63,111 bases of DNA. Origin: a virus. Lineage: Duplodnaviria > Caudoviricetes. Both the position numbers and the translations under genes were made by a program. Below, one piece after another: positions 22,375-51,545 of the stretch (position 1 is the first letter of the stretch; each line of letters begins with the position of its first letter). Where the stretch lies: the IMG/VR virus record IMGVR_UViG_3300048898_000040, positions 1 to 63,111 of that record; one strand, given 5' to 3'. The notes under the pieces were generated by a model, which was given only the letters and a program-made list of their open reading frames with translations, did not search any database and was not told the DNA's origin.

Positions 22375-22414
22375 AATCCCTCCCGGGTAGTGCGCCCCTT
22401 TCCCGGGGCACTCG

Positions 22415-22605
22415 TGCTCGGCCGGGAATCGAACCCGGATTCAGGTGGCTAACCGAATGCCCTCGACTACCAGCCCTTCCTCAAAACCGGTAGCCGAGCC
22501 GAGCCACGGAGCCTTCACTCTCCGCGTGCAGTACGAGACGGGGGTCGTGACCCGTACCGCAACCATCGGGCGGCGCACCGCGAAGTAACCGCCCTGTAAG
22601 GTCTA
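22415..22605 (-). ncRNA. Structured RNA ending in a tRNA-like domain (22415-22504)
   Basis: Three hairpins, then GCTCGG/CCGAGC acceptor-like stem, a 12-bp arm, a 6-bp arm and T-arm CCGGG-TTCGATT-CCCGG. Confidence 0.65.
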
Positions 22606-22610
22606 ACGAA

Positions 22611-22639
22611 ACTATGTCAGGCCAGGGCCCGACAAGCAA
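22611..22639 (-). promoter_or_regulatory. Putative sigma70-type promoter for the structured RNA
   Basis: TTGCTT-17 nt-CATAGT. Confidence 0.4.
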
Positions 22640-22651
22640 GCCGCCACGCCT

Positions 22652-23353
22652 TCAGGACTCGTCCGCATCGAGGCGGAACATGCACCCGTTGACTTCCGGC
22701 CCCGATCCCAGGTTGTGCACGATAAGGCTGGCAAGCGAGCTCTTGGCCATGCCCCCGGCCAGTCGCTGGTCCCGCATCCGGGTGAGTCGCCCCGGCCCGA
22801 ACTGCGCCACAGTGTCGGCCGTCATGGGCGTGTCAGCCAGTAGCCCCGGCTCGTAGCCGTACACGAACAGGTTCGACCCCGCACCACTCAGCTCACGCGC
22901 CTTGACGCGTAGCGCCATGCTGAGCGCCGCTTTACTGGCGCAGTACGCCGCCGACCCAGAACGCGGCACGTGCGCGCTGTTGCTGCTGATGGCTACGTAG
23001 TGGTGCGGCACCCGTTCGGTGTCATTGTTGGCCAGCACCATGGTCCACGCCTGAAGCAGCTTCATCGGCATGACAACGTTGACACCGAAGTGCCAGCGGT
23101 ACCACTCCTGCAGGGCATCCGGGTCCAAGTCCTGCTCGGGGTTGTTGATGCCGACAGTGCACACCACGTGCGTCGGCTGCTCCTTCTCCAGGAAGGCCGC
23201 CAGGCTCAGCACGCTCGAACCTAGCGACAGCGTGCGCTCTTCTCCAGCTATTCCGGCAGTCACCACGTCGTACGCCGCGAGCGCCGCGTACATGGCAACT
23301 TCCTCGCCGAGCGAACCCTTACGGGCTCCGACGACCAGCACCTTCTTGGTCAC
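22652..23353 (-). CDS. Short-chain dehydrogenase/reductase (SDR)
   Basis: VLVVGARKGSLG Rossmann start, ISS, catalytic YCASK, PGLLADTPM. Confidence 0.85.
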   Translation of the reverse strand: MTKKVLVVGARKGSLGEEVAMYAALAAYDVVTAGIAGEERTLSLGSSVLSLAAFLEKEQPTHVVCTVGINNPEQDLDPDALQEWYRWHFGVNVVMPMKLLQAWTMVLANNDTERVPHHYVAISSNSAHVPRSGSAAYCASKAALSMALRVKARELSGAGSNLFVYGYEPGLLADTPMTADTVAQFGPGRLTRMRDQRLAGGMAKSSLASLIVHNLGSGPEVNGCMFRLDADES

Positions 23354-24009
23354 CCCTCCCCTCCGTCCCGCAGGTTCACGCGCGGCTTGACGTAGACCTG
23401 GCGCATGGCGTCGTTGTGGATCCAGTAGCTGAACGCGCCGTACGTCGACTGGCAGGTCTGCGCGTGAATGAACGCGTTGGCCTGCATGGCCTTGATGGTG
23501 TCCGAGTATGCCCGCTGCGTCGGCACCTTGAAGCTCAGGTGCGGGATAGGCAGCTCCGACCACTGGCCCCAGGTCGGCACCGCGCCCTCCGGGTACCAGA
23601 GCGCCTGATGCAGCGGGCTGAAGCCGTACCGCTTGTCCCGAGTGGCCTCGTCCATGCGCATTACCTCGAGCCGCCAGGTGCGGTGGGGGTGTCGGAGAAA
23701 GGTGTACGCCACGGCATACCGGGTGCCGAACGGGTTGGTGAACACGAGGTCAGTAGCCTCATTGAACAGCCGCCACCCGCCCACCATGAGTTCCCGGACC
23801 AGACCCTCCTTCGCACCGATGCCCGGAGCCAGGATGCTGGCCTCGTCGAAGTAGCACCCGGTCGGGAGCATGGGCGTGTACTTGTCGATGTACGTCTGAA
23901 CCATCTGCACATTGGCCGACACTGGGAGACGGCGGTCCCAGTAAAGCGGTTTCTGGCTCAGCGGCACCCGGAGAACTTCACCGTCGAGCTCAACTTCAGA
24001 AAGTCTCAT
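23350..24009 (-). CDS. Putative VOC/glyoxalase-fold protein
   Basis: LEVMR...SPLH...HLSFKV...FSYW pattern resembles methylmalonyl-CoA epimerase-type VOC proteins. Confidence 0.45.
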   Translation of the reverse strand: MRLSEVELDGEVLRVPLSQKPLYWDRRLPVSANVQMVQTYIDKYTPMLPTGCYFDEASILAPGIGAKEGLVRELMVGGWRLFNEATDLVFTNPFGTRYAVAYTFLRHPHRTWRLEVMRMDEATRDKRYGFSPLHQALWYPEGAVPTWGQWSELPIPHLSFKVPTQRAYSDTIKAMQANAFIHAQTCQSTYGAFSYWIHNDAMRQVYVKPRVNLRDGGEG

Positions 24010-27000
24010 TATCTCTCCATCGATAGGACATGGAGCTCGGTGGCGTACAGCGCCCGCCGGTACTCCGCTCGTTTGTAGCCCCGCACTAGCAAGAGGTCAT
24101 TATCCGGGTCCAGGTCCCAGATATCCTCCTTGTACTTCTCATACAGACCGCCATACCGGTGCACGGTAATTGTCAGCGGCCCAGTCTCGTCAACGCCCAG
24201 GATCACAGCGTAGTTGACGTACTGCGGCTCCTTCACCTTCTTGGGGTCCAGCTCCTCGCCGGTTCGGGAGCGGTGTAGTTCGTATATGTCCTTGAGGTTA
24301 CGGTGCACCACTCGGCCGAGCCAGACATGCTCGCCCCGAATGGCTTCGTATGGCACGGTCTCACTGCGCGAGGAGGGGAAGGGGAGGTTAGCGCGTTCAC
24401 CGTGCTTGTCCAGCCACCACCGCGCTCTGTCGAGCGTGCGCTTTAGCTCGTGAATACCGAACGGGTCGTCCTGTGCGCAGAACTCCTGCACCCTCTTCAT
24501 GGTGGCCGGGCCGATACCCCTGACCGCTACGTAGTCGGCCCACTCCATCTCCACCCGACGACCAACCGTGCGCCTCCACAGCGGCCGGTACTCAAGCATC
24601 AGCTCGGCCGTCTTCTCGCCAATCCCCTTCACCTGCACGAGGCCAGCCCGCAGCGCTTCACCTTCGATGGACCACGTGAGCTGAGACATCTCCGGATCTG
24701 GCGGGAGCACCCGGATGCCCTTGCTGGTAACCTCCTTCAGGATGTCGAGCACCTTGTCTTCGTCCTTGTACTTGCTCAGCGCCGCGCAGTAGAAGGCCAG
24801 CGGGTGATTCTGCTTTAGCCACATTGTCCAGTAGGCCAGCATCCCGTACGACACACAGTGCGCCGCGTTGAAGGCGTACGCGCCTGCTGTCACGAGCTGC
24901 TTCCAGATGCGCCCGGCCACCACCGGCCGTACCCCGAGCTCGCCCGACCCCTCCATGAACTTAGCCTGTAGCCGGTTGAAGGCCTGCTCGCCCTGTTTCT
25001 TGCTGATGAGCTTACGGACCAGGGCGGCCTCTTCCCACGAGAACCCGCCCAGCTCGCGGACGGTACGGAGGATCTGCTCCTGGTACACGATCTGGCCGTT
25101 GGTGTGCGCCGTGATTTCGGTCAGGACCGGGTGTAGCTTCTCCACCATCTTCTTGCCGTGCTTCGCCTGGATGTACTCAGCCGCCGCGCCACTGTGTAGC
25201 GGACCGGGACGGGCCAGCGCGTTGATGTCACAGACTTCAGCGAAAGTATCAGGTTTAACCTCTCGGTTAACCGACCGCATAGCACGACCGTCAAACTGAA
25301 AGATTCCGATGACCTCGTTGCGTTTGAAACCGTCGTAGACCTTTTGGTCATCCAAAGGAACAGCATAGAGCTCCTCCAGCGTCATACCTATGATGCCCAG
25401 CGCCCGGCGAATGAGGCCCATCGTGGTAAGGCCCAGTGCGTCAATCTTCAGCACGTTCAGGTACTCGGCGTCGTACTTGTCGATCGAGAGCACCTCTCCG
25501 ATGACTTCGCCCTTCGGCGTCGTGCGCTTGTACACCGCGAGGTTCTGGGTCAAGGGGCCGTTCGCCACCACAAGGCCCGCAGCGTGCACGCTGAAGCCTT
25601 TAATGTTGCCTTCGAGACGTTGGGCGGTCTCCAGGTCGGGCCACATGGCAAACACCTTGGCCACCTTGGGGAACAGCTCTCGGCTATCCTCGATGGTCTG
25701 GCCGTACCGTAGGTCACCTGACGACCTTTCAAGTAGCCCTCCCTTGACCTCCTCCACCGCAGTTTTGGGGATGTTGAACACCTTGGCCGCGTCGTCGAGG
25801 CTGTTCTTGCCCCGGTACATGGTGAAGGTGCCGATGTTGCCCACCCGTTCCGCGCCATACAGGTCGACCAGGTGGTCGCGCACCTTGTACCGCAGCTCGT
25901 CGTCGAAGTCCAGGTCCACGTCCGGCAGGTCGTGCCGGTTGACATCGATGAACCGCTCGAAGATGAGGTTGGGGAACAGCATCGGGTTGACCTCAGTGAT
26001 GCGCAGCAGCCAGCAGGCCAGTGACGCAGCCGCCGAGCCACGGGCGGGGCCGACCGGGATACCGTTCTGCTTGGACCACTTCACCATTTCCGAAATAACC
26101 AGGAAGTAGTCCGTGAACCCCTTCGACAGAATCAGCTCGGTCTCGTACTTCAGGCGGTCTAGATACCGTTTTCGCTCCGCTCCCACCAGGGCGTGAAGAC
26201 CCCGGTACCGCCATCCTTCTCGGAGCCACTGCATGAACAGCTCCCGCGACGGCTTAGTGCCTGGGAATACCAGGTCCTTAAGTTTCGGTAGCGTGACGTT
26301 GCATCTATCGGCAATCTCCAGACTTGTACCCACCGCCCGTTCAGCCGTACTGCTACGTAGCCCGGTCTCCAGGAGTCCGCTGTATACGGCATCACCCGTT
26401 TGGTGAGCCAGAACCAACCCGTATTCCCAGCTCTGCGCCTGGGCTTCAACCGTGTTGCGACTCCCTCCCCGGTCAATGGCGTGAAGGACGGGGTACATGT
26501 CCTGGTCGGCTTCCGTCGGGTAATGCACGTCACCAGTCGCGACGAGCGGTATGCTGAGCCTTCCCCCAATGCGACCCAAGGCTCGATTGTAAGCCTTCTG
26601 CTTTTCGAGCAGTGGGTGCGCCTGTACCTCCAGGTAGTAACGGTCCCCGAATACCTCTCGAAACTGGCTGGCAACACGAATGCCCGCTGCCAAGTCTGCC
26701 GACTTCTTATCGCCCTCACCCTTCCCTCCCATCACCGCAGTAGCGAGCCGTCCGCCCAGGCAGCCGCTCAGCACGACGAGCCCCTCGTTATGCTCGGCCA
26801 GCATCTCCCCGGTCGTGGTCGGCTTGTAGCGGAAGTTGTCCCAGCTCTTCGTCACGATCTGGTACAGGTTGTGCAGGCCCGTATCGTTCATCGCGAGCAC
26901 CGTCAAGTGGTGCTTGAGCTGGCCGCGCTCATCAGGCGTCTCGCAGTACAGCTCGCAGCCCTTGATGTCCTTCACGCCCACCTTCGCTGCCGCGCGCTCA

Positions 27001-27152: not shown

Positions 27153-27170
27153 CGCGACTACTCAGCTTGC

Positions 27171-28721: not shown

Positions 28722-28869
28722 TTTTTCCTCACCAGCGCCTTCAGCAGCCGAGAAAGCTTACCCTCCGGCTTCGGCCCGTTGCCCCAGTGGTACGGCCCGT
28801 TCGTGGCCCCCGGCTGCACTCGGTACCCTGGCCGAATGGCCTTGGAGGCGTCGTACTTCGGCTCTTTGC

Positions 28870-39239: not shown

Positions 39240-39479
39240 GGCATTCCAGAACGATGAGAATAGCGCAAAGCCAGAGCGTTTCGCTTCTCGACACAGCTTC
39301 TCCTCTGTGTTGGCCAATCGACGAGTTGGGGCGAGGCTACGAAGCCCGGATGGCAACGTGGAAGAGGCCGTCCGTAAGCACCTCGCCCCTCGTCGTGCAC
39401 CAAACCGTGGGTGCCCCGGCAACGGTCATCAGAGCTTGGGACAAGATGTGGGAGTCTCGGTTACCCTGAAGCCGTTACG
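39240..39479 (-). ncRNA. Candidate structured RNA immediately 3' of a tRNA-like element
   Basis: CGACGAG/CTCGTCG, GGGCGAGG/CCTCGCCC, ACACAG/CTGTGT and GTAACGG/CCGTTGC stems. Confidence 0.45.
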
Positions 39480-39568
39480 TGGTGGGGGCTGGATTCGAAC
39501 CAGCGTCCTTCGACGGGTGGCACGCCAATGCTGCCGCCGACGCTCTAGGGCCTCTGAGCTACTCCACC
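39480..39568 (-). ncRNA. tRNA-like element with an elongated, non-canonical anticodon arm
   Basis: GGTGGAG-TA-GCTC...GAGC-G-(31-nt arm)-AGGAC-GCTGG-TTCGAAT-CCAGC-CCCCACC-A. Confidence 0.75.
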
Positions 39569-40714: not shown

Positions 40715-40999
40715 TCATAGCTCAGCCTCCATCATCGCCAGTTCCGCCTGGATAACGTTGGCTAGGTAGGTGGCCTTGTCCCGCCACCAATTGCCTGCGC
40801 CCAGTGCATCCCGTAGGGCTATGTTCACGCTCTTGATTTTGTCCTGCTGGACCACGTCGTCAACGTTGCTATCTTCCAAGTACTGGTTGAGCTCTCCGTT
40901 GAGGCGGTTCCACTTGGCGTCGAACCTCTGCGTCTGCTTCACGGCCTCCTGCATCAGAGCCCGAAGGCTTCGAAGGTAGGCGGTTTGTGCGGCGTTCAT
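40715..40999 (-). CDS. Hypothetical helical protein
   Basis: 94 aa, coupled to the helicase stop. Confidence 0.55.
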   Translation of the reverse strand: MNAAQTAYLRSLRALMQEAVKQTQRFDAKWNRLNGELNQYLEDSNVDDVVQQDKIKSVNIALRDALGAGNWWRDKATYLANVIQAELAMMEAEL

Positions 41000-42849
41000 A
41001 CTGCCTCCTTGTCGTACTGAGCGAGCTCCTTGGCGTACTCGAGGCCGCGCCGCCCGTCGAGGAGGCGTGCCTGCTTCTCGTGTCGGTCGGCTACGTTGTG
41101 ACCGAGCTTCTCGTCGATGGTGCCCATACTGCGGTACAGGTAGAAGAACACCGCGTGCGCCCGACCGCGCCGGAAGATGCGCCCGAAGAGCTGGGTCATA
41201 CTATCCGGGTCGCTCTCGTCAAGCGCGTGCAGCTCGTCGGCCGCGTCGAGCGTGATGCTGACTCCGCCCGCCTGCGTATTCAGGAGGAAGATCTGGTACT
41301 TGCGGTTGACGTGCGTGTCGCCCTGGAAGGCGCTCATGGCCGCTTCGCGCTGTCGGTCGGTGGTCTTGCCGTCGATGCGCAGCGTGTGGCGACCCTCTTT
41401 GTGCAGCCGCCGCTCGACCGCGTCGAGAAACTCGTTGTACTGGCTGGCCACCACGACCTTACGACCATCGGTTAGGTTGTCCAAGTGTGACAGCAACCTG
41501 TCAATCTTGCAGCTGAAGCCGGTGTAGACAACCCTCCCGCCCTCTTTCCGCAGAGCCCCGTTCGCGAACTGGCGAGTGCGGGTCAGGTAATCAAGCGTGC
41601 CGACAGTGCTGATAATGCCGCCTTCTACGGCCAGCTCGGCGTCCTGTGTGAACTTCTTGTACTGAGCGAGCTGCGCTCCCTCCATCTCACACATGACCTC
41701 GATCCAGTTCTTGAGGCCCTTGTGCTCTTCGCTCACCTCCTCCATGGTGCGCCGTAGCACGCGCGGCCCCATGTCAGCCCACATTCCCTTCTCGTTGATG
41801 ACCTCCCCGATACGGCGCACGGTCTTAGTGGCTCCGCCGCCATCCTTGACGTACACCTCATCTTCCTCTACCCGGAAATACTTACGCAGCCACGACCACC
41901 TGCTAGTGAACTCGTCCGGCCATAGCCAGTGCAGCGTGCCGAACAGCGCCTCGGTGCGACCGCCCTTGCCGAACGGCGTGGCGCTCACAGCTAGCTTGAG
42001 CCGGTTCGGTGCGTAGTTAAGCGCCCGGATGCCTTCTCCGGCCAGCGTAGCTCTGACCACATCCATGGCCCCGAGCACCTTGTGGCTTTCGTCCACCACT
42101 ACTGCTGACCACTCCACCTCGAAGAGGCCGGGGTACTCGTAGCCGTGGAACTCAGTAATGCGCCCCTTGCTTCGGTCAGCCCGAATACGCAGCATCTCGG
42201 ATACCACGACCAGCACCTTGAAGGGGTGGGGGTCGGCCAGGAATGCCAGAATGATCTTCTCTCTACTCGAGCGTGCGCCGTGGCAGGCGTAGACCGGGAT
42301 GTCCGTGTGTCGGGTGATTTCACGAAGCCATACCGGCCGCACCGAGATCTTGGGGCACACGATGAGAGTCGGTCCGGTGATATCAGCCTCAACCAGACCG
42401 GCTATGACACCAACCGTCTTTCCCGTACCGACCTCGTCGGCTAGCAGACCACCACCCCGGTAAGCATTGGCCACCCAAGCGGCCGTTACACGCTGATCTC
42501 CCTTCAGCCAGTCGTTCAGCCGGGGATACTGCGCAGAGAGGCGGGGGAGGGTGGCGTCGGTATCCTGGGTGCGTGCCACCTGCTCGATGCGCTCCTGGTG
42601 CGCGACCCGGAACCACTCCGCTAGGGTCTTGTGCACCCGGAGGGCTGAGCCCCACGCCGCGCGCATCTCGTAGCACTTGTCGACGCTCAGCGGGTACCGG
42701 AACACGTAGCGCCCGACCGTGCGGTCGCTGTCTGCCTTGCTGAACCGGCTGGCATCTACCTCTTTGCGCACTGCGTTAGCTGCGTCATAGTCGCTGGCCA
42801 GCACATGTACGTTGATGGTGGAAATGCCGAGGTAGGCTTCGATACGCAT
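40996..42849 (-). CDS. SNF2-like (SF2) helicase
   Basis: LADEVGTGKT, VVDESH, SATP, AGGVSITL, QLFGRIFR; ATG follows the ACTACCCGGGAGGG motif. Confidence 0.9.
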   Translation of the reverse strand: MRIEAYLGISTINVHVLASDYDAANAVRKEVDASRFSKADSDRTVGRYVFRYPLSVDKCYEMRAAWGSALRVHKTLAEWFRVAHQERIEQVARTQDTDATLPRLSAQYPRLNDWLKGDQRVTAAWVANAYRGGGLLADEVGTGKTVGVIAGLVEADITGPTLIVCPKISVRPVWLREITRHTDIPVYACHGARSSREKIILAFLADPHPFKVLVVVSEMLRIRADRSKGRITEFHGYEYPGLFEVEWSAVVVDESHKVLGAMDVVRATLAGEGIRALNYAPNRLKLAVSATPFGKGGRTEALFGTLHWLWPDEFTSRWSWLRKYFRVEEDEVYVKDGGGATKTVRRIGEVINEKGMWADMGPRVLRRTMEEVSEEHKGLKNWIEVMCEMEGAQLAQYKKFTQDAELAVEGGIISTVGTLDYLTRTRQFANGALRKEGGRVVYTGFSCKIDRLLSHLDNLTDGRKVVVASQYNEFLDAVERRLHKEGRHTLRIDGKTTDRQREAAMSAFQGDTHVNRKYQIFLLNTQAGGVSITLDAADELHALDESDPDSMTQLFGRIFRRGRAHAVFFYLYRSMGTIDEKLGHNVADRHEKQARLLDGRRGLEYAKELAQYDKEAV

Positions 42850-43006
42850 TACGCCCTCCCGGGTAGTAGACACCTGAGAAGCATAGCCTAGCTCACGGCA
42901 CGAAGCCATGAGCTGGACTTCGCCGCTCAGAGCGTGTACAGCCAGAGCTCGAAGTACAGGGCCGACACGAGCACCAGCGCCGGTGTCATAGCCGCCAGCA
43001 ACCCCT

Positions 43007-43288: not shown

Positions 43289-43310
43289 CGCTTCTCCTCG
43301 ATGCCGGTCG

Positions 43311-44003
43311 CTACGCGACCGTGTAGATGCTATCGACCCGCACGACGCGCGTCGGGCCGCTCATGTGCTTGCCACGGTCACTGTCGTAGCCCGCGTACTC
43401 GCGGAAGTACAGTACCCGCTCGTCACTTTCCTCGTCACGCACGACCTTGACCCACTGCGGGTCTACGTGCACCTTGCCCTCCTGCGGCACCCAGCGCCGG
43501 TCCTCCGGGCCCCAGGTTTCAGGGTCCGTGTTGGTCAGCTTGGCTAGGTCAATAGCCCATTCAATGCGGCGACCGACCAGCATGGCCTCGACGGCTTCGT
43601 CCTCCATGTCTCGGGGGATGACATGCCCGTCGCGGACAAGGGCCTCTTTGCGCATGTACGCCGGTACGCCCCTGCTGGCCGGGCCCGTGGGCTTCGGCGT
43701 GCTGCCCTTGCGCGGTGCATTCGTGCGCGGCACCTCGCCCCGGTTCACCATGGCGTAGTACCGCCGAGCCGTGCCCGCACCGCTCTTGCTGCCGGGCAAG
43801 CTGAGCTTGGCACCGATGGCCATCCAGCTCAGCTTCTCCTCGTCACGCAGGCGCTTGACCTCCTGTGCCCGAGCCAGCTCGGGGTCCTGCGGAGGAGGGG
43901 CGGGGCGGGAAGCCACCACACGCTCGGTGGCCTCCTCGACGATGGCTGCTGCCTTGCGAGCGGCAATCTTGGCGCGCATTGCGCCGCGTTCCTGCCTGCT
44001 CAT
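43311..44003 (-). CDS. HTH-containing hypothetical protein
   Basis: LRDEEKLSWMAIGAKLSL...TARRYY. Confidence 0.55.
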   Translation of the reverse strand: MSRQERGAMRAKIAARKAAAIVEEATERVVASRPAPPPQDPELARAQEVKRLRDEEKLSWMAIGAKLSLPGSKSGAGTARRYYAMVNRGEVPRTNAPRKGSTPKPTGPASRGVPAYMRKEALVRDGHVIPRDMEDEAVEAMLVGRRIEWAIDLAKLTNTDPETWGPEDRRWVPQEGKVHVDPQWVKVVRDEESDERVLYFREYAGYDSDRGKHMSGPTRVVRVDSIYTVA

Positions 44004-44212
44004 ACCGCGCCAACCGTGACAAGCACGCGCTGACCGCCGACGACCGCGAAGAAGCTGACGGTGCCCTCGTTCATGTCGGTTTCCGCGTCGCCCACGTCGG
44101 TGACCTGGTGGTCCTCGGCCTCGTTGTAGTTGGTCACGCCCTCGCCGGTGCCCCGCAGGTCGTCGAGGTGGTCAGCCAACTCCTGCGCCACGTTGGCGAT
44201 GATGTCATTCAT
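44000..44212 (-). CDS. Small acidic hypothetical protein
   Basis: ATG directly after the ACTACCCGGGAGGG motif. Confidence 0.65.
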   Translation of the reverse strand: MNDIIANVAQELADHLDDLRGTGEGVTNYNEAEDHQVTDVGDAETDMNEGTVSFFAVVGGQRVLVTVGAV

Positions 44213-44250
44213 GTCACCCTCCCGGGTAGTAGGTACATGGTCACTCTACG

Positions 44251-44742
44251 TCAGTCGATGAACGGGTGCAAGAGGTGGTCGTTGTCCCAGTCGAGCTCAC
44301 CGGTGTACGGCTTCGGCTCGTGCATGTCGCCGACCGCCCGTTCGAACTTGCCGGGAGGTAGGTCCTTTCCTCGGCCGCCACGACCACGCCGTGCTCGGTC
44401 CATAGCGGATTCATGCACTTCTTCGGGTGGCAGTAGGTTCCGCGTGTTGTCGTTGAGTGGCATATCGAAGGTCATTTGGTGTCCGTCGAAGCTGCCGAGG
44501 TACTCGCTGCTCTCATGCTCGCTCTCAGGTCGCCCGCATCGCCCCACGACGAAGGCCTCGTTAGAACCAATCTGCACGATGCAGCCCTGGCTATCATCTC
44601 GCGGCGAACCGGCATCGTACGCGTGGTCCACGATGGACTTAGCCGGGAACGGCACGTACTCATCCACGGCGGGCCCTCCGAGCTCGGCGCTTGCTCGCCC
44701 GTTCCGCCACCACGTTACGAACAGGTGCGGGTTCAGCGGCAT
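44251..44742 (-). CDS. Hypothetical protein with an H-x-Y...C...C...H module
   Basis: DHAYDAGSP...GC...RCGRPESEH. Confidence 0.5.
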   Translation of the reverse strand: MPLNPHLFVTWWRNGRASAELGGPAVDEYVPFPAKSIVDHAYDAGSPRDDSQGCIVQIGSNEAFVVGRCGRPESEHESSEYLGSFDGHQMTFDMPLNDNTRNLLPPEEVHESAMDRARRGRGGRGKDLPPGKFERAVGDMHEPKPYTGELDWDNDHLLHPFID

Positions 44743-45762: not shown

Positions 45763-46743
45763 TCAGCTGAGCTCCTTCGTTCCGCCACCACGGTTGATAC
45801 CGACCTGGCGAGCCGCAGCCCGGCCCGCCATCCGGCCGCGCTCTGCCGCCACGCTGTTGTAGTCCGGACCACGGCTACTGCGACCCATCGGGATGTAGTG
45901 CTCTCGACAAGCACCGCGCTTGCTCCTAGCGCACGCCTCGCACCGGGGACCCTCTTCTGCGGAGGGGAGGGCGGGGGCGGGCTTCTGCTCGGGATAGAAG
46001 GCGTAGAACGCCTCGTTGATGCGCTCCTTACGCCCGTGCAGCACCAAGCCACCACCGCTCGCGTTCGCCGCCTGCCGAGCCGACCACAGCCGGTTGCTGA
46101 GCGTGACCACGAACTGGTCGGCGTACTGCTCGCGGTATGCTGCGCCGGTAACGCCACGGCCACTCAGCATGGCCTCCTCGCCGCGTTCCTCGCACTCTGC
46201 CTTGTACAGCCGACCGACCCGGGCGAGGAACGCCTTGTCGGTGTTGCCCCACAGCGCCTGCGCCACCCGAACACGCTCCATGCCGCTGGCCCGCAGCCGG
46301 TACGCGTTCACCTGGTCGCTGACGTTCGGGTCGATCTTAGGCTCGAGTCGTTCGGCGAACACTAGGCGGGCACTGGTGAACATCATCTCCGCGTACTCGA
46401 CGTCCTCGGCGTAGCCAACGGCGTGAGCCGTGAGGCGGTAGCCCTCTTCGCCGTACTTGTACTCAGACCACTCCCGCACCTCGCAGTGCTTGGCGATGTG
46501 CCACCACATGATGTGGTACCGGTCGCGGTACTTACTGCCCTGGCTAGCCAGAACGATGTCTCGCTGCACCGGCTTGGCCACAGCCGGGTCGACCGCGATA
46601 GCCTGCTCCTGTTCGACGCGGTACTTGACCATCAGCTCTTCGGCCTTGGTGCGGTAGCTGGCCGCCGCTTCGAGGTTGCCCTCGTTCTCGTAGCTCTCGG
46701 CCGTGTCGAGCAGCGCGCGGACCTTGGCTCCCATGTCGCTCAT
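45763..46743 (-). CDS. DUF2786-like domain protein
   Basis: KVRALLDTAES...EAAASYRTKAEELMVKY; start after the motif. Confidence 0.7.
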   Translation of the reverse strand: MSDMGAKVRALLDTAESYENEGNLEAAASYRTKAEELMVKYRVEQEQAIAVDPAVAKPVQRDIVLASQGSKYRDRYHIMWWHIAKHCEVREWSEYKYGEEGYRLTAHAVGYAEDVEYAEMMFTSARLVFAERLEPKIDPNVSDQVNAYRLRASGMERVRVAQALWGNTDKAFLARVGRLYKAECEERGEEAMLSGRGVTGAAYREQYADQFVVTLSNRLWSARQAANASGGGLVLHGRKERINEAFYAFYPEQKPAPALPSAEEGPRCEACARSKRGACREHYIPMGRSSRGPDYNSVAAERGRMAGRAAARQVGINRGGGTKELS

Positions 46744-46777
46744 TGCGACCCCTCCCGGGTAGTGGTTGTGCTTTGCG

Positions 46778-46845
46778 TGGGCGTGAGCGGAATCGAACCG
46801 CACCCTCCGGGTTTCCCCGGCGCTCTCCCAGTGAGCTAAGCGCCC
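46778..46845 (-). ncRNA. tRNA-like element with a GAAA tetraloop in place of the anticodon loop
   Basis: GGGCGCT-TA-GCTC-ACTGGGA-GAGC-G-CCGGG-GAAA-CCCGG-AGGGT-GCGG-TTCGATT-CCGC-TCACGCCC-A. Confidence 0.75.
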
Positions 46846-46902
46846 TAGGTGCCACTCTACAGAATGGCGGGGTGCCCCGGGTTGCCCCGGGGCCTCCAGA
46901 GT

Positions 46903-47073
46903 TCAGGAGTTACGGTCCATGCGGGCCTTGAGCGCAGCGTTGGCACGAACCTTGTGAATGTTCTCCCGGATGTAGCTGCCACCGAAAGCTACGATGACCT
47001 TCGGGGCGCGGAAACTGTCGCACATGTTGTTCGCGGCGGTGGTGTTGACGTGGTTGCAGGTGGTGTGCGACAT
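46903..47073 (-). CDS. Small hypothetical protein (56 aa)
   Basis: MSHTTCNHVNTTAANNMC...; CCGGGAGG RBS and its own promoter. Confidence 0.6.
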   Translation of the reverse strand: MSHTTCNHVNTTAANNMCDSFRAPKVIVAFGGSYIRENIHKVRANAALKARMDRNS

Positions 47074-47113
47074 GCTGGGCCTCCCGGCTGAGTTCTTACT
47101 TGCTGATGAGAGA

Positions 47114-47143
47114 ACATTAGCAAGGAGAGGTCACGGTCCGCAA
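47114..47143 (-). promoter_or_regulatory. sigma70-type promoter
   Basis: TTGCGG-18-TAATGT then TCTCTCATCAGCAAG. Confidence 0.65.
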
Positions 47144-47157
47144 CCCCTCTGGACTGA

Positions 47158-47691
47158 CTACTTGTCGATGCAGACCGGGCCGATACCCAGCTCGCGATAC
47201 TCACTGGTGAGGGTCTTGCCGCACCGACCGCACCGGCCGATGAGCTGACCGTACCGGGCGAGAGCTGCCTTGGGGTCCAACGCGATGGCTTCGAGGATAG
47301 CCTCACGACCCGAGGGGTTGCGGATGGGGTAGTAGTCGTCGCTGGCCTGCACGTCTACGAACCAAACGCCAACCCTGCGGCCCCGCTTGACCCGGTAGAA
47401 CTTGACCTCCCCGTCCTGCTCCAGGGCGTAGTGGAAGCTGTGCGGCTTACCAGACTCGGGAAGGGGAGAGACGCCCGCGTACTTTTCGGTAACCGTGACC
47501 GCCACCTGCTGGCTCTTGAGCCACTCGATGACCTTGCTGGCCTCGGCTGCGGAAGAGGGGCGGGTGGGGAAGACCTTGCGGAGCTGCTCGGCGCTAATCC
47601 CGCGCTCCTTCATCATGGTGTTGATGAGATTCGCTTGGTTCTGGGTGTACGGCTTCGGAGCCCAGCTCGGCTTGCTGTCGACTGCGTTCAT
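47158..47691 (-). CDS. DUF6011-like zinc-finger protein
   Basis: YGQLIGRCGRCGKTLT...GIGPVC. Confidence 0.7.
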   Translation of the reverse strand: MNAVDSKPSWAPKPYTQNQANLINTMMKERGISAEQLRKVFPTRPSSAAEASKVIEWLKSQQVAVTVTEKYAGVSPLPESGKPHSFHYALEQDGEVKFYRVKRGRRVGVWFVDVQASDDYYPIRNPSGREAILEAIALDPKAALARYGQLIGRCGRCGKTLTSEYRELGIGPVCIDK

Positions 47692-47725
47692 GCGACCCTC
47701 CCGGGTAGTAACCACTTATGAGAGA

Positions 47726-47755
47726 ACCCTATCACGCGGTCGAGCCGGGGAGCAA
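47726..47755 (-). promoter_or_regulatory. sigma70-type promoter
   Basis: TTGCTC-18-TAGGGT then TCTCTCAT. Confidence 0.65.
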
Positions 47756-47787
47756 GACAGCCTCCCCGACCCCTCCTTCCGCAGGTG

Positions 47788-48750: not shown

Positions 48751-48828
48751 ACAGCCTCCTAGGCCGCTCAAACGGTTGAGCCCACACCCTATCAAGGGCA
48801 TGGGCTCGGTGGTGCAGTTTGGAGCGGT

Positions 48829-49377
48829 TCACTTACCTGTGGACTGCACCGACCGGGTCTTGCCCTTCGGGTGCACACCCGCCCAGCCGCCCTTCGGCGC
48901 GGGAACCGGCTTGCCGTGGCCATCGAGGTGACTGTCCCACTTGTCCATGGCTTTCTGGAGGCCCTCAGGGGTCACCTTGTCTGCGTGCACCACGATGTCC
49001 CAGAAAGCCTTCTTGCACTCGCGCCGCGCGGCCGGGGTCTGCGGGTGGCTGTGGCCCTTGTGGTTGAGCTGGGGGCGACGGTCGCCCTGCGCCTTGGGGC
49101 CGGTGCTGGCCGCCTTCGGCTTCTGCGCTAGGTTGAGCTCCGGGTGGCAGATCCAGCAGCTCTCCATGGCGCTCAGCTCATCCTGCTCCGCCTCACTGAG
49201 GTCGGCACCGTTACCCGCCTCGACCTGCGCCGAGATGCCCGCGTGGTTGTAGTCGCTGTGCGTGTTCTCCTGGCCGCCCTCTTCGAAGCAGTAGTTGCAC
49301 ATCTGGCTGCCAGGGGGAGCGGTGTCGACCTTGGCTCCGGTGTAGGCACGGCGCGTGTTGCAGACGTTGCAGATCAT
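48829..49377 (-). CDS. Cys/His-rich hypothetical protein
   Basis: CNVC, CNYC...H..H, CWICH, HPQTPAARREC; start after the motif. Confidence 0.65.
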   Translation of the reverse strand: MICNVCNTRRAYTGAKVDTAPPGSQMCNYCFEEGGQENTHSDYNHAGISAQVEAGNGADLSEAEQDELSAMESCWICHPELNLAQKPKAASTGPKAQGDRRPQLNHKGHSHPQTPAARRECKKAFWDIVVHADKVTPEGLQKAMDKWDSHLDGHGKPVPAPKGGWAGVHPKGKTRSVQSTGK

Positions 49378-49422
49378 GGGGCCCTCCCGGGTAGTAGTAG
49401 CTGCTGCCTTGCTGATGAGTTT

Positions 49423-49451
49423 AGCTTACACAGTCATCAGCCCCGGTGCAA
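49423..49451 (-). promoter_or_regulatory. sigma70-type promoter with the -35 box inside a hairpin
   Basis: TTGCAC-17-TAAGCT; GCCCCGGT...ACCGGGGC. Confidence 0.65.
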
Positions 49452-49471
49452 GACCGGGGCCGTGAGTTTTG

Positions 49472-49672
49472 TCAATCCCAGAGTTTCTCGTCGAGATCAA
49501 TGCGGGGTACCTCGATTTCTCGCTTGATACCGAATCCGCAAACCTCGAGATGCACGAGCATGTCTCCGCCAGCCTGTTCTGTCATACCCCAATAGTGGAA
49601 ATACAACCCGTCATATCCTACGAACACGCTCCCGTCGACAGGCTCCGCCTTGAGCTGATTGGTGGTAAGCAT
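49472..49672 (-). CDS. Small hypothetical protein
   Basis: ATG after the motif. Confidence 0.6.
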   Translation of the reverse strand: MLTTNQLKAEPVDGSVFVGYDGLYFHYWGMTEQAGGDMLVHLEVCGFGIKREIEVPRIDLDEKLWD

Positions 49673-49701
49673 GTGACCCCTCCCGGGTAGTTGGTGAACT
49701 C

Positions 49702-49730
49702 AGCCTATCCGCTCGTCAGCCCCGGCGCAA
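49702..49730 (-). promoter_or_regulatory. sigma70-type promoter with the -35 box inside a hairpin
   Basis: TTGCGC-17-TAGGCT; GCCCCGG...CCGGGGC. Confidence 0.6.
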
Positions 49731-49747
49731 TGACCGGGGCCAGCGAA

Positions 49748-50143
49748 TCAGATTACGTGCAGGACCCTCTCGGCGATGATGCGGGCCATCTCGAGCCCGG
49801 CCGCCTCGTCCGCCAGTTCCTGGGTGAGAACAGCCGTTCCAGCCGTGTGTACCGCCTGCTTGAGCGCCGTCTCGGCTGCTTCGAAATCCCCGCTGTACAG
49901 CTCCGCCATGAGATGGGCGGCGGAGGTGATGAACCCAGCACGCCGACCGGCGTAGTAGTCGGTCTTCTCCCTCTGAGCTTGCCGCGAACGCACTCCCGCC
50001 TCGGAGCGTAGCGCGCCCCGGATGAGCATGAAGAGCAACGAGCGGTGCGGAGCCGTGGTCGGGATGTTGGTCGCTGATGAGACGAACTCCGCAGTGTTGG
50101 CCGCCATGTCTACCGCCACGACACCGTCTTCTGTCTCGAACAT
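49748..50143 (-). CDS. Hypothetical helical protein
   Basis: AAGGAGG RBS, MFETEDG start. Confidence 0.6.
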   Translation of the reverse strand: MFETEDGVVAVDMAANTAEFVSSATNIPTTAPHRSLLFMLIRGALRSEAGVRSRQAQREKTDYYAGRRAGFITSAAHLMAELYSGDFEAAETALKQAVHTAGTAVLTQELADEAAGLEMARIIAERVLHVI

Positions 50144-50167
50144 TTCCCCTCCTTGGGATGGAATACG

Positions 50168-50236
50168 TGCCCCTGGCGGGATTCGAACCCGCACCCTCCG
50201 GTGTTTGCCGGTGCCGCACCGCGCGGCGTCAGGGGC
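50168..50236 (-). ncRNA. tRNA-like element with a shrunken anticodon arm
   Basis: GCCCCTG-AC-GCCGC-GCGGT-GCGGC-A-CCGG-CAAACA-CCGG-AGGGT-GCGGG-TTCGAAT-CCCGC-CAGGGGC-A. Confidence 0.75.
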
Positions 50237-50262
50237 TGGTGGGGCGGTTGCCGCCCAGTTGC

Positions 50263-50625
50263 TCACTCCTCGGAAGCGCCCAGGAGCATGGCCTCGAGCT
50301 CGTCCTCTTCCATGTCTAGCAGCTCCTCGGTGATGGCCAGGTCGACCAGCACCCGCCGGATGGCGGAGACACTGAGGTGCAGTTCGTTCGCGATGGACCG
50401 CATGCTACGCGGCGCGATGAAGAGGACACCCTCGGACTCGTCAGCCTCCTGGCCCTCCCGCTGCGCCCGCACCCAGACCGCCTCCTCGAGGGCCTTGCCG
50501 CTGAGGAAGTGCCGACGACGGAGGGTGCCGTCCTCGCGAACGCTGTGGACCTGGGCAACGCCCGCGTTGAGAGCCTCGAGGATGTCGGAGTCGGCAGTGG
50601 CGGTGGCGGTGATGATGAGTTCCAT
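50263..50625 (-). CDS. HTH DNA-binding protein
   Basis: SMRSIANELHLSVSAIRRVL; start after the motif. Confidence 0.75.
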   Translation of the reverse strand: MELIITATATADSDILEALNAGVAQVHSVREDGTLRRRHFLSGKALEEAVWVRAQREGQEADESEGVLFIAPRSMRSIANELHLSVSAIRRVLVDLAITEELLDMEEDELEAMLLGASEE

Positions 50626-50663
50626 TGTGACCCTCCCGGGTAGTTGGCCTTGCTGATAGAAGA

Positions 50664-50693
50664 ACAGTAGCACGGGTGTAGGACCCTACGCAA
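50664..50693 (-). promoter_or_regulatory. sigma70-type promoter
   Basis: TTGCGT-18-TACTGT then TCTTCTATCAGCAAGG. Confidence 0.65.
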
Positions 50694-50712
50694 GGCCCTT
50701 TTCCCAGGGACT

Positions 50713-51177
50713 TCAGGATACCTTGGACCTGATAGCCCGAACGTTGCTGACCTGCGGCTTCCTGCGGGAGGAGGGCTGGGAGGGAGCTGCCTTGGCGTGC
50801 ATAGCCGAGCGCGCCAGCGCCATAAGCACGTCGACGGTGAAAGGCATGGCGTGCGCGCTGATTGGGTCAGTTCCACCGAGCGTGAACATATGCGTGAGGT
50901 GCCAGTACGAGACCCAGGCGGCAATGAGAGCTATGACCCCCACCCCCACCTTCCGCAGGAGACCGGCCCGCCCCTTGGCGGGCACCCTCTCCACCATCTC
51001 CAGCGCCAAGAACAGCGCTACCGGGGCCCAGAACCCGGTCGCCAGCCCGACCCAGGTGTGCGCACTCGCGTACATGTTGGCTGCCACGGTGGCCGCGCCG
51101 GTGGCGTAGAAAGTGCTTCCGGCGGTAATGCGGGTGTTACGGGCGCGCCGCTGCGCAGCCGTGAGCTTGGCGGTCAC
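50713..51177 (-). CDS. DUF2637/SpdA-like membrane protein
   Basis: Several TM helices; AAWVSYWHL...MPFTVDVLM. Confidence 0.65.
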   Translation of the reverse strand: MTAKLTAAQRRARNTRITAGSTFYATGAATVAANMYASAHTWVGLATGFWAPVALFLALEMVERVPAKGRAGLLRKVGVGVIALIAAWVSYWHLTHMFTLGGTDPISAHAMPFTVDVLMALARSAMHAKAAPSQPSSRRKPQVSNVRAIRSKVS

Positions 51178-51381
51178 ATTCCCTCCGCGTCATGGTCGGT
51201 CTCGATCTCGTGGCGAGTGAGCTCGTCTTTGGTGACGTAGCCCTTGCCGCACTCGTTACACTCGTGCTTGATAGTCCCGCGCGCTGTCTGAGCGTCGCTC
51301 ATGATTGCTCTCCCGAGCTAGTGAGATGTTCGGCTGAGATGCCGGGACAAGGCACCCTCGTGGGGTGCCCTCTCCGTGGTC

Positions 51382-51504
51382 TCAGACGTAGCGAACGACA
51401 GGAGTGTACCGACGGCCAGTGCTGGCCTCGAGGTGCGTACCCTTCGAGCTGAACTTCCTCACGAGAACGTACTTGCGACCAGTGCTGCGCTCTGTGAACT
51501 TCAT
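51382..51504 (-). CDS. Small basic protein (40 aa) with an internal STGR(K/R)Y duplication
   Basis: MKFTERSTGRKYVLVRKFSSKGTHLEASTGRRYTPVVRYV*; ATG after the motif. Confidence 0.6.
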   Translation of the reverse strand: MKFTERSTGRKYVLVRKFSSKGTHLEASTGRRYTPVVRYV

Positions 51505-51545
51505 GAGACCCTCCCGGGTAGTGGACCTGCCTTGCCGATGAGAGA

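Follow-up and report, generated by a model that had tools for sequence, protein, structure and literature searches.

A covarying element before the early genes of an uncultured actinophage: a probable RNA hairpin carrying the ribosome-binding site

Introduction

Why would a phage place the same fourteen nucleotides immediately before the start codons of gene after gene in its early region, when only part of that motif is a Shine-Dalgarno sequence? The question is raised by a single stretch of DNA, referred to here as the window, which comprises all 63,111 nucleotides of the viral record IMGVR_UViG_3300048898_000040 and which, judged from its sequence, is a complete 63-kb siphovirus of the actinophage type, an uncultured soil phage. 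An initial annotation had listed nine exact copies of a 14-mer fused to ribosome-binding sites and had suggested a translational regulon or operator, naming two phage proteins that might read it.

The virus has no close cultured kin. By DnaE its nearest cultured phages are only 45–47% identical and infect Streptomyces, Arthrobacter and Mycobacterium; the motif region found no match among 50,697 phage records by megablast or blastn, and the capsid protein, used as a query in the search for a host, found no relative among genome contigs. Comparison was made possible by eight related viral contigs whose DNA is about 70% identical to that of the window and in which the element is also present. The four relatives that carry the exact 14-mer can be aligned to the window over 6.7–43.9 kb only, at 70–73% identity, and their early proteins are 29–79% identical. 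Wider searches added little: a 16-mer scan of genome contigs gave 107 loci, each with a single match and none in a promoter-plus-start context; a leader-pattern scan of viral contigs gave, among matches listed that were otherwise at chance, one locus in the right context, which was from the known relative G003; a search for related loci with a 120-aa helix-turn-helix (HTH)-like protein of the window found only one relative, G002; and no RNA data set was listed for the region.

Copies, Orientation and Spacing

The nine exact copies of ACTACCCGGGAGGG stand as first described, at 22378, 42854, 44217, 46750, 47696, 49382, 49678, 50631 and 51509, all on the minus strand, and an exact match appeared in none of 100 dinucleotide-preserving shuffles. 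Allowing up to three mismatches gave 19 matches against 9.5 expected; the ten inexact ones carry two or three mismatches each, which is the chance level, and the window has no copy with a single mismatch. The reported spacing of 3–6 nt was also correct: in order of position, the last G lies 4, 5, 5, 4, 4, 6, 4, 4 and 3 nt from the start codon, which is ATG in eight cases and GTG in one. Likewise, the nine led genes all lie in the early and replication part of the genome (51.5–42.8 kb and 22.4 kb), as the claim of a restriction to non-structural genes requires, and none of the head, tail or packaging genes of the window is led by the element.

Two variant copies had been missed at first reading, ACTAGCTCGGGAGAGC at 51307-51322(-) and ACTCAGCCGGGAGGC at 47079-47093(-), which brings the window to 11 elements, nine exact and two variant. 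Searched with a covariance model and no filters, the window gave 11 minus-strand hits at E<=0.015, and the best of the remaining hits scored 13.9 bits; the 11 window sites belonged to the training alignment of that model. The relatives have 10–11 elements each, with element-to-start spacers of 3–8 nt, and four of them contain 4, 6, 7 and 5 copies of the exact 14-mer, giving 31 copies over five genomes. At the 64 other gene starts in the window, AGGA, GGAG, GAGG or GGAGG occurs at 38 and the ACU-hairpin at none; these genes have varied Shine-Dalgarno sites of the AAGGAG type.

A Small Hairpin at the Ribosome-Binding Site

Taken together with its variants, the 14-mer is probably the commonest class of a wider element, a small RNA hairpin in which the ribosome-binding site of early genes is embedded. 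Its layout is ACU, one or two nucleotides, a stem of 3–4 bp with a GGGA loop, the 3′ strand of the stem and, 3–8 nt further on, the start codon, so that the Shine-Dalgarno sequence (GGGAGG) is made up of the loop and the 3′ stem strand. In class I, the exact 14-mer, ACTACCC is followed by GGGA and GGG; in class II, ACTCAGCC is followed by GGGA and GGC; and in class IV, which has a 4-bp stem, ACTAGCTC is followed by GGGA and GAGC.

The fold originally drawn for the 14-mer, CCC-GGGA-GGG, is backed by stem covariation across the relatives, where the loop and the closing C-G pair are invariant and the remaining stem pairs covary. The stems found at start codons are CCC/GGG, GCC/GGC, GCC/GGU, ACC/GGU and GCUC/GAGC, and they include switches at orthologous genes: the stem before the DUF6011 gene is CCC/GGG, ACC/GGT or GCC/GGC and that before the helicase gene CCC/GGG, GCC/GGC or GCC/GGT, always paired, the latter two types accounting for three of four helicase sites in the relatives. 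In an alignment of 61 sites from nine genomes, all 183 cells of the three inner pairs were paired. The closing pair was C-G at all 61 sites; another was C-G at 53 and U-A at 8; and the third was C-G at 40, G-C at 19, A-U at one and G-U at one. The covariation score of these sites, 0.419, compares with 0.151 in shuffles and was reached by none of 500, and sliding the partner strand by 1–3 columns reduced pairing to 17–51%.

The perfect pairing of the 61 sites is partly built in, because the filter used to collect them required ACT and at least three pairs. Three selections are free of this bias: a set defined by a promoter regular expression, a metagenome scan and a set that counted elements lacking ACU. 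The metagenome scan left the stem bases free and returned 80 loci, mostly unrelated coding sequence that served only as a null set; all eight hits in promoter context were fully paired, as against 9 of 44 unrelated hits. Of 63 elements counted, 61 have ACU itself, and the other two are plausible elements without it. Exceptions to full pairing do occur, namely an outer C.C mismatch at a metagenome locus that is probably a family member (L426) and a start-associated variant in G002 whose loop is AGGA and whose outer position is unpaired.

Conservation is concentrated in the element. Mean pairwise identity at orthologous sites was 1.00 for the loop and 0.84–0.85 for the stems, compared with 0.36 over the upstream 30 nt and 0.53 over the first 30 nt of coding sequence. 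The stem variants fall into a few discrete classes, each individually invariant and recurring in up to eight genomes. The predicted hairpin is weak, with an energy of -3.6 to -5.3 kcal/mol; in arbitrary -35/+30 contexts its mean predicted probability was 0.43, and it was near 0 at three of the 11 window sites. Since only one G.U occurs among the inner pairs, the case for pairing in RNA and not in DNA relies mainly on the transcribed position of the element and on its ribosome-binding role.

Promoters and Leaders

Many elements follow a SigA-type promoter. In five genomes, a regular expression for such promoters gave 28 matches on the gene strand; an element comes after 27 of them, in every case with three pairs, and the same expression gave three matches on the opposite strand. 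A scan for the TTGACA/TATAAT consensus over 41–56 kb found only one site, the promoters here being of the TTGCnn/TAnnnT type, which lies outside that scan.

In the window, where every feature given here is on the minus strand, six of the nine exact copies have a promoter match upstream. The class I element at 51509..51522 leads a 40-aa open reading frame (ORF, 51382-51504) and lies 23 nt from a match to TTGCGG-17-TAGTGT (51546..51574). The one at 50631..50644, which leads the 120-aa HTH-like ORF (50263-50625), lies 19 nt from TTGCGT-18-TACTGT (50664..50693), and the one at 49678..49691, before a 66-aa ORF (49472-49672), lies 10 nt from TTGCGC-17-TAGGCT (49702..49730), whose -35 is within a GC-rich hairpin. 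The greatest distance, 27 nt, separates TTGCAC-17-TAAGCT (49423..49451) from the class I element at 49382..49395, which leads a 182-aa zinc-ribbon ORF (48829-49377). A 177-aa DUF6011 ORF (47158-47691) is led by the element at 47696..47709, 16 nt from TTGCTC-18-TAGGGT (47726..47755), and a 70-aa acidic ORF (44000-44212) by that at 44217..44230, 12 nt from TTGCAC-17-TAGAGT (44243..44271). The class II element at 47079..47093, before a 56-aa ORF (46903-47073), also has a promoter match upstream, TTGCGG-18-TAATGT (47114..47143). A further class I element, at 42854..42867, leads the SNF2 helicase (40996-42849).

Other elements are placed after tRNA-like structures or intercistronic hairpins. The class I element at 46750..46763, leading a 326-aa DUF2786/DUF7168 ORF (45763-46743), is 14 nt downstream of a tRNA directly upstream of it (46778..46845; Rfam RF00005, 34.9 bits against a gathering score of 29). 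That at 22378..22391 leads a 36-aa membrane-peptide ORF (22264-22374) upstream of ThyX and comes after a small hairpin and a tRNA-like structure directly upstream (22415..22499), which has an acceptor stem and a T arm and scores below threshold for every Rfam family. The class IV element at 51307..51322, before a 42-aa C2H2-like ORF (51174-51302), is preceded by an intercistronic hairpin and no promoter. GC-rich hairpins stand between early units and overlap the next -35.

Comparison with Known Systems

The likeness to the start-associated sequences (SAS) of cluster K mycobacteriophages, proposed at the outset, holds feature by feature with the exception of the sequence itself. In both systems an asymmetric motif of 13–14 nt occurs in 11–19 copies per genome, in one orientation, 3–9 nt before start codons in the ribosome-binding position, and is conserved where pairing with 16S rRNA is impossible. 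Both sets lie mostly in the non-structural arm, with a SigA-like promoter (the ESAS of cluster K) before many copies. The cluster K sequence differs, however (GGGATAGGAGCCC), and cluster K phages are temperate. Their ESAS includes an inverted repeat of 17 bp; in the window the -35 is instead straddled by a GC-rich hairpin. The accessible parts of that literature propose no structure for the SAS, whereas covariation is clear here; among the SAS variants tabulated in 2025, the available part of the table shows, at positions 1 and 13, one compensatory change (CGG...CCG) along with several single mismatches. Described in 2011, the SAS had a role still called unknown in papers from 2024 and 2025. 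We found no described function for the SAS or similar motifs in the papers searched, no mention of either in PMC9262239, and no published occurrence of the exact 14-mer.

Cluster EF phages resemble the window in several respects: they are lytic siphoviruses, their genes all lie on one strand, their G+C content is similar (63.8%), and so is their gene order (tail, lysis genes, helicase, RecB-like exonuclease, RecA-like, primase/helicase, oxidoreductase, ThyX and DnaE). They also share the layout in which a promoter-like box is followed by a short leader and then by the invariant motif and ATG. Their motif is a different one (GGGAAAGGACCCC), with eight exact and two single-mismatch copies in the 38.7 kb examined, and because it is near-invariant it permits no covariation test. 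A covariance model of the present element run against AnnaSerena gave nothing significant (best E 0.84). The element thus appears to be the same kind of thing as the SAS, while its sequence makes it a member of neither the cluster K nor the cluster EF set.

Other parallels are more partial. T4-type phages have PeSL (promoter-early stem-loop) cassettes, in which a hairpin and an early promoter are repeated ahead of early genes that are small and variable. In both cases the cassettes coincide with module boundaries, but no structured ribosome-binding site is known to define PeSLs, and their hosts and sequences are unrelated. RNA hairpin operators are a further precedent, among them CsrA/RsmA sites, T4 RegA/RegB targets, the Mu Com-mom leader and lambda boxB. 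The element has in common with these a short hairpin at or beside the Shine-Dalgarno sequence of a set of mRNAs and a GGA or GNRA loop; it differs in that the phage yielded no cognate protein, the stem has only 3–4 bp and about 11 leaders per genome carry it.

Competing Explanations

Several explanations can be envisioned that would give the element no role, or a role at another level. It is hardly credible that the motif does no more than lengthen the pairing with the host 16S rRNA 3′ end, for although CCUCCU pairs with GGGAGG, the 16S tails of three Actinomycetes (GGATCACCTCCTTTCT), which may not match that of the host, contain nothing that could pair with ACTACCC; this agrees with the original statement that ACTACCC is not needed for a Shine-Dalgarno sequence. 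Further complementarity would require AAA in place of the CCG found 5′ of GGAGG, the predicted duplex of class I (-11.1 kcal/mol) is weaker than those of two ordinary window sites (-12.7 and -13.0) and far from the full complement (-24.3), and other genes of the window use AAGGAG-type sites instead. Cassette recombination, in which promoter-leader-RBS cassettes are exchanged between early genes and ACTACCC is a functionless by-product, is quite improbable as a full account. Elements do flank small genes unique to one genome (the 40-, 42- and 56-aa ORFs, which have no tblastn match in the relatives), similarity blocks between genomes often begin 10–140 nt from an element, and orthologous genes can carry different classes; yet the core is invariant while the adjacent leader is 36% identical and variable in length in genomes about 70% identical, and the stem changes are compensatory. 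Recombination may use the cassettes, but this does not explain their conservation. A DNA operator is also improbable. Cluster A stoperators are 13-bp duplex DNA sites bound by the immunity repressor of temperate phages, and a repressor bound to an asymmetric site downstream of promoters would block elongation. Like stoperators (named in PMC3203893), the elements are many asymmetric copies in short intergenic spaces, in one orientation relative to transcription and often just downstream of promoters, and the HTH-like early protein is itself element-led. The elements, however, keep a fixed distance to the start codon while that to the promoter varies from 10 to 27 nt, some of them stand after tRNA-like elements or hairpins without any promoter, and of the 76 ORFs scanned none matched an integrase or immunity repressor family. 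Unlike stoperators, the sites covary as a hairpin: a DNA operator is disfavoured because the stem bases differ between sites of one genome while staying complementary.

Explanations at the level of RNA must be weighed as well. Lambda-type nut sites comprise boxA and a boxB hairpin read by an N-like protein and are placed independently of start codons. A nut-like signal, in which a GNRA hairpin and a single-stranded box in the nascent RNA load a factor onto RNA polymerase for read-through of hairpins, would fit a GNRA-loop hairpin near the start of each early transcript and the GC-rich hairpins that overlap the next -35 between units, but we consider it very unlikely: the element is locked to the start codon and not to the promoter, nearly every unit has its own promoter, and neither a boxA-like sequence nor an N-like protein was recognised. 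CsrA sites have a short hairpin that overlaps the ribosome-binding site and exposes GGA in its loop, and two GGA motifs are used. The noted resemblance to CsrA/RsmA sites survives in the shape of the hairpin, given the GGGA loop, the short covarying stem and the overlap with the ribosome-binding site; it is with the protein that this reading, as a site for a host CsrA/RsmA-type regulator, becomes weak and on balance improbable. The phage encodes no CsrA. The family (PF02599) was found in 38 of the 201 genomes sampled from the Streptomyces phylum, but in none of four named Actinomycetes (Streptomyces, Nesterenkonia, Nocardioides and Micromonospora, which may not include the phage host) and not in the control, Corynebacterium glutamicum, and the nearest cultured phages infect Streptomyces, Arthrobacter and Mycobacterium. 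The leaders inspected appear mostly to lack a second GGA and to have AAGGC upstream instead. As a blanket rule, the absence of CsrA from Actinobacteria is contradicted by the same 38 genomes.

A Candidate Translational Operator and Its Readers

T4 RegA or RegB shuts off early translation, and Mu Com opens a hairpin on mom mRNA, thereby activating its translation. By analogy, a phage RNA-binding protein might read ACU and the GGGA hairpin on all early leaders and so shut off or activate their translation, a tentative proposal that would refine the explanation by an RNA start module without contradicting it. ACU and the loop are kept beyond what the hairpin or 16S pairing needs, the variants form a few discrete classes, the element is restricted to the early region, and several small early proteins to which no function is assigned are conserved in all relatives. 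Against this, no RNA-binding family was found in any protein of the window, and the invariance of the loop requires no reader, since no tetraloop other than GGGA can belong to the GNRA type and at the same time form part of GGAGG.

Neither of the two proteins suggested as readers could be confirmed. The HTH protein at 50263-50625 gave HTH matches below threshold only. Its AlphaFold model is good (pLDDT 84.7), but a PDB fold search with that model found no match at E<=0.001, and the weak rows were DNA-binding domains (sigma region 4, KorA and LuxR), so that, if anything, the protein resembles DNA-binding proteins. The Com-like zinc ribbon, at the N-terminus of the 182-aa protein (predicted structure at pLDDT 41), has no counterpart in G003, which still has 10 elements. 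Thus, the suggestion of a translational regulon or operator divides: the DNA form is disfavoured by stems that differ and stay paired, action at the RNA level is favoured, and the reader itself was not found.

A Proposed Start Module

The explanation we prefer, with a probability of roughly 0.6, is that the element is a start module acting at the RNA level on early cistrons, standardised and independent of context for ribosome binding. It would serve those early and replication cistrons that need their own initiation, as the first gene after a SigA-type promoter, a tRNA-like structure or an intercistronic hairpin, while translationally coupled downstream genes and all structural genes would make do with ordinary, varied Shine-Dalgarno sequences. 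We infer that the module works by insulation and nucleation. The weak local hairpin would shield the G-rich Shine-Dalgarno sequence from the variable, C-rich flanks of a high-GC mRNA, and GGA would be shown in a pre-stacked GNRA loop, where pairing with the 16S anti-Shine-Dalgarno sequence could nucleate and then open the stem.

The chances are about even that a trans-acting reader, of phage or host origin, also recognises ACU and the loop and would switch the translation or stability of the early set together; this is so because ACU and the discrete classes are explained by neither the hairpin nor 16S pairing. The stricter formulation, an RNA operator consisting of ACU and a GNRA-looped hairpin that holds the Shine-Dalgarno sequence, read by a phage or host RNA-binding protein, is possible but clearly less probable than the start module.

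Implications

For a phage known solely through metagenomes, the element marks the early transcription units and the true starts of very small ORFs (36–56 aa). This uncultured lineage also supplies natural stem variants that stay paired, which, as far as the accessible sources go, has not been shown for the near-invariant motifs of clusters K and EF, and such variants give a concrete structural model with clean mutational predictions for the stem, loop G8 and ACU. A further possible use is as a compact promoter-leader-RBS part in high-GC Actinomycetes. If the RNA operator is real, the approximately 11 early transcription units of each genome would form one translational regulon, and the SAS of actinobacteriophages in general would be structured RNA operators, beyond being strong ribosome-binding sites.

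The Phage and Its Gene Order

The window, 63,111 bases long, is a complete virus record (direct terminal repeats and 100% completeness in the IMG/VR classification), and every convincing gene is encoded on the minus strand. Followed as it is transcribed, the genome opens with packaging and head genes (small and large terminase, portal, MuF-like protein, scaffold and major capsid). The tail genes (major tail protein, chaperone, tape measure, Dit and minor tail proteins) occupy 63.0 to 52.7 kb on the minus strand, and small genes with no known function lie between 51.5 and 42.9 kb, also on the minus strand. The replication genes come last and encode an SNF2 helicase, a PD-(D/E)XK exonuclease, a Sak4-like protein, a primase/MCM-like helicase, a DnaE-type polymerase and ThyX. 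Because the 76 ORFs scanned in the window include no integrase or repressor family, the DnaE protein is 45–47% identical to its counterparts in Streptomyces, Arthrobacter and Mycobacterium phages, and none of 50,697 phage records matches the window at the DNA level, this is an uncultured actinophage-type siphovirus, probably with a lytic lifestyle. Its DNA is present in two metagenome runs, one labelled as soil and one as root. In the head-gene region, a 799-aa protein (7271–9670, minus strand) has a C-terminal ADP-ribosyltransferase match (phrog_3895, residues 668–793), and its MuF-like neighbour (9869–10783) also gives a weaker match to ADP-ribosyltransferases.

A Conserved Element at Non-Structural Gene Starts

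The initial annotation had singled out a 14-nt motif at the starts of nine genes, all of them non-structural, and motif counts, shuffling and start-codon spacing bear this out. The motif, ACTACCCGGGAGGG, occurs nine times in the window, on the minus strand only (at 22378, 42854, 44217, 46750, 47696, 49382, 49678, 50631 and 51509), with a start codon 3–6 nt past the end of each copy (ATG in eight cases, GTG in one), and was matched in 0 of 100 shuffled windows. The window holds no copy with one mismatch, and matches with two or three mismatches are at chance level (19 observed versus 9.5 expected).

Enumeration of all ACT...CGGGAG sites revealed further forms of what is a wider element, composed of ACU, one or two nucleotides, a stem of 3–4 bp and a GGGA loop. 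The 14-mer is class I (ACTA-CCC[GGGA]GGG); the stem variants are class II (ACTCA-GCC[GGGA]GGC, also ACTCG-GCC...GGC and ACTCG-ACC...GGT), class III (ACTA-GCC[GGGA]GGC or GGT) and class IV (ACTA-GCTC[GGGA]GAGC). One class IV copy (51307–51322, minus strand) leads a 42-aa C2H2-like ORF at 51174–51302 and one class II copy (47079–47093, minus strand) leads a 56-aa ORF, which with the nine exact 14-mers makes 11 elements in the window. A covariance model finds these 11, which belonged to its own training set, at E ≤ 0.015, each on the minus strand and well separated in score from the next match (13.9 bits). The ACU-hairpin is absent from the window's remaining 64 gene starts, which carry AGGA (13), GGAGG (12), GAGG (7), GGAG (6) or none of these (26). 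The 42-aa ORF (minus strand) scores just above the Pfam threshold for C2H2 zinc fingers (25.8 versus 25.2 bits), and tblastn found no counterpart to it among the four relatives.

Within IMG/VR the exact 14-mer is present at 45 loci, four related contigs holding 22 copies together (4, 6, 7 and 5), and string searches for classes II and IV yielded four additional fragments. Three complete relatives and a fragment of 15.9 kb can be aligned with the window, over 28.8, 43.9, 29.3 and 6.7 kb, with an identity of 70–73%; their early proteins are 29–79% identical, and several small ORFs are confined to a single genome. Between orthologous sites, identity is 100% in the loop and 84–85% in the stems, as against 36% in the 30 nt upstream and 53% in the first 30 coding nucleotides. 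Since loop and stem identity lies so far above that of the flanks, the comparison of sequences indicates that the element itself is under selection, and that recent copying is not the cause of its conservation.

Base Pairing of the Stem

In an alignment of 61 elements from nine genomes, the three inner pairs that flank GGGA form in 183 of 183 cells, the closing pair being C-G throughout (61/61), the second C-G in 53 and U-A in 8, and the third C-G in 40, G-C in 19, A-U in one and G-U in one; a fourth pair is formed in only 34 of the 61. The covariation score is 0.419, compared with 0.151 for shuffled alignments (none of 500 shuffles scored as high), and sliding the 3′ partner along the alignment reduces pairing to 17–51%. 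One caveat is that the aligned sites were collected by a script that demanded ACT and at least three pairs; three selections made without a pairing filter (a promoter pattern, a metagenome scan and orthologous genes) agree with the result.

The promoter pattern (TTGCNN, 17–18 nt, TANNNT), applied to five genomes, matched 28 times on the gene strand versus three times on the opposite strand; an element follows within about 40 nt in 27 of the 28, with three pairs in 27 of 27, the sole match without one lying at 34435 in the relative G003. The metagenome scan, which looked for a conserved leader box, ACT, 4–5 free bases and GGGAGG, returned 52 distinct sequences, of which the eight in a -10-like context were all fully paired (five from new contigs, three from the relatives G001 or G003), as were 9 of the remaining 44. 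Orthologues of the DUF6011 gene have the stems CCC/GGG, ACC/GGT and GCC/GGC, and those of the helicase gene CCC/GGG, GCC/GGC and GCC/GGT, always paired. There are exceptions: one apparent family member (locus L426) has C.C at the outer pair; at 38407 in the relative G002, where ACTAGCCAGGAGGA lies upstream of a start codon, the loop is AGGA and the outer position does not pair; and plausible elements at 7228 in G001 and 53135 in G003 lack ACT. Intramolecular pairing is the simple explanation of the stem variation, and base-by-base reading of duplex DNA by a protein is unlikely, because stems vary within one genome yet stay complementary.

Promoters and tRNA-Like Structures Upstream

Of the nine exact copies, six have a match to the promoter pattern 10–27 nt upstream. 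At the helicase copy there is a -10-like TATGCT and no -35 at the spacing of the pattern, and the helicase copies of G002 and G004 have full promoter matches. Among 20 element-linked promoters in five genomes, 12 have a TGn extended -10, and 10 have a conserved box ATC(A/G)GCA... at the expected transcription start. In fuller form this box reads ATC(A/G)GCAAGG, lies about 7 nt past the -10 (for example at 49405–49414, 50648–50657 and 47097–47106, minus strand), with a stretch of pyrimidines, TCTCTC, in front of it. The box may serve as a DNA target of the HTH-like early protein or as a signal in the initial transcript. The -35 is often straddled by GC-rich hairpins (49423–49470, 49702–49745 and 47726–47775, minus strand, with equivalents in all four relatives), which place it (TCTTGC) in the loop or 3′ arm and look like terminator or 3′-end hairpins that belong to one unit and overlap the promoter of the following unit.

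Two exact copies have a tRNA-like structure upstream in place of a promoter: a tRNA at 46778–46845 (minus strand; Rfam, 34.9 bits), directly upstream of its element, and a fold at 22415–22499 (minus strand) that is sub-threshold (19.2 bits, E 0.24), with weak matches to tRNA-Sec and mascRNA. Because both structures directly precede elements and the arrangement is repeated in relatives, it suggests that the mRNA 5′ end is made there by tRNA-type processing. Elsewhere in the non-structural arm, also on the minus strand, are a tRNA at 39479–39568 (Rfam, 39480–39568; a 90-nt tRNA-Ala according to ARAGORN) and an ARAGORN call with an odd two-base anticodon at 50167–50236. Class IV copies have an intercistronic hairpin upstream and no promoter. 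The distance from element to start codon is constant while that from promoter to element is variable, and the feature that element-led genes share is a cistron needing independent initiation.

A Model for Initiation and Its Alternatives

In the model that we favour, the loop and the 3′ strand of the stem together constitute the Shine-Dalgarno sequence. Under the GNRA tetraloop rule, GGGA is the sole tetraloop that both fits and continues into GGAGG, and the closing C-G pair employs a Shine-Dalgarno G, so that the invariance of positions C7 to G13 comes from the overlap of two constraints. The hairpin alone is predicted at -3.6 to -5.3 kcal/mol, weak enough, it would seem, to be opened by the 30S subunit. 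The element may thus be a standardised initiation module, which would shield its G-rich Shine-Dalgarno from stray pairing in variable high-GC contexts and present stacked loop bases from which pairing to the anti-Shine-Dalgarno could nucleate. Predicted thermodynamic support is modest, and the case for the hairpin rests on covariation, because the predicted hairpin probability in arbitrary contexts averages just 0.43 and is low at some sites.

The near-constant ACU and the few discrete, individually invariant classes are not accounted for by the initiation-module model, and for this reason we put the chance that a trans-acting reader takes part at about even. Neither of the two readers first proposed was confirmed. 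The HTH-like protein (120 aa) has only sub-threshold HTH matches, and its confident predicted model (pLDDT 84.7) gave no Foldseek match at E ≤ 0.001, with weak rows to sigma region 4, KorA and LuxR DNA-binding domains; if it is a regulator, the promoter or start-site box would be a likelier target than an RNA hairpin. The 182-aa zinc-ribbon protein has a poor predicted fold (pLDDT 41), and its ribbon has no counterpart in G003, though that genome keeps 10 elements. Pfam and PHROGs returned no RNA-binding family in the phage proteins. Reading by a host CsrA is a weak but live proposal: of 201 genomes sampled from the phylum 38 have CsrA, but it was not found in the phage, four named Actinomycetes or the Corynebacterium control.

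Longer complementarity to 16S rRNA is a disfavoured reading, the 16S tails of three Actinomycetes being GGATCACCTCCTTTCT, with no partner for ACTACCC. Helix 45 in the last 40 nt of these rRNAs (CCGTACC-GGAA-GGTGCGG; L436–L438) likewise forms a GNRA hairpin closed by C-G, with UA in front, and resembles class I (CTACCC-GGGA-GGG), probably through coincidence between two small GNRA hairpins. It is plausible that the cassettes serve recombination as a side effect, since unique small genes bring their own cassette and homology blocks begin near elements, but such a role leaves the conservation of the element unexplained.

Relation to Known Start-Associated Sequences

The closest known kind is the start-associated sequences (SAS) of cluster K mycobacteriophages and cluster EF Microbacterium phages. 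Published descriptions present these as short asymmetric motifs in the ribosome-binding position of 10–19 non-structural genes, conserved beyond the needs of 16S pairing, often with an ESAS upstream that contains a SigA-like promoter, and describe their role as unknown. The cluster EF phage AnnaSerena has gene order and a promoter-leader-motif-ATG layout in common with the window phage. Arthrobacter phage Wollypog, in which the gene order is likewise found, carries only a looser motif (CACAAGAAAGAGGCCC in form), repeated upstream of four early genes. That motif (CACA(A)GAAAGAGGCCC, then 3–6 nt and ATG; 3537–3558, 4077–4098, 5135–5156 and 6083–6104 of locus L353, MW055913) may be another start-associated motif in a phage of like gene order. 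In sequence the element is unlike the cluster K, cluster EF and Wollypog motifs; its covariance model has no significant match in Rooney, Gumball, Wollypog or AnnaSerena, and the 14-mer string is absent from the published papers searched for the exact motif.

The K and EF sequences may form hairpins as well, since each contains GGG...CCC that is able to pair (-1.9 and -3.1 kcal/mol). Among the cluster K variants in supplementary Table 3 of PMC12699233, at least one is compensatory and several are single mismatches: the SAS of Pixie, CGGATAGGAGCCG, is changed at both positions 1 and 13 with complementarity kept, and several others are altered at just one of the two. The cluster EF motif hardly varies. 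The element described here is a real feature under selection, and a new, structured form of a kind of start-associated sequence already known yet unexplained; through it, the question of what such sequences do becomes a testable structural hypothesis.
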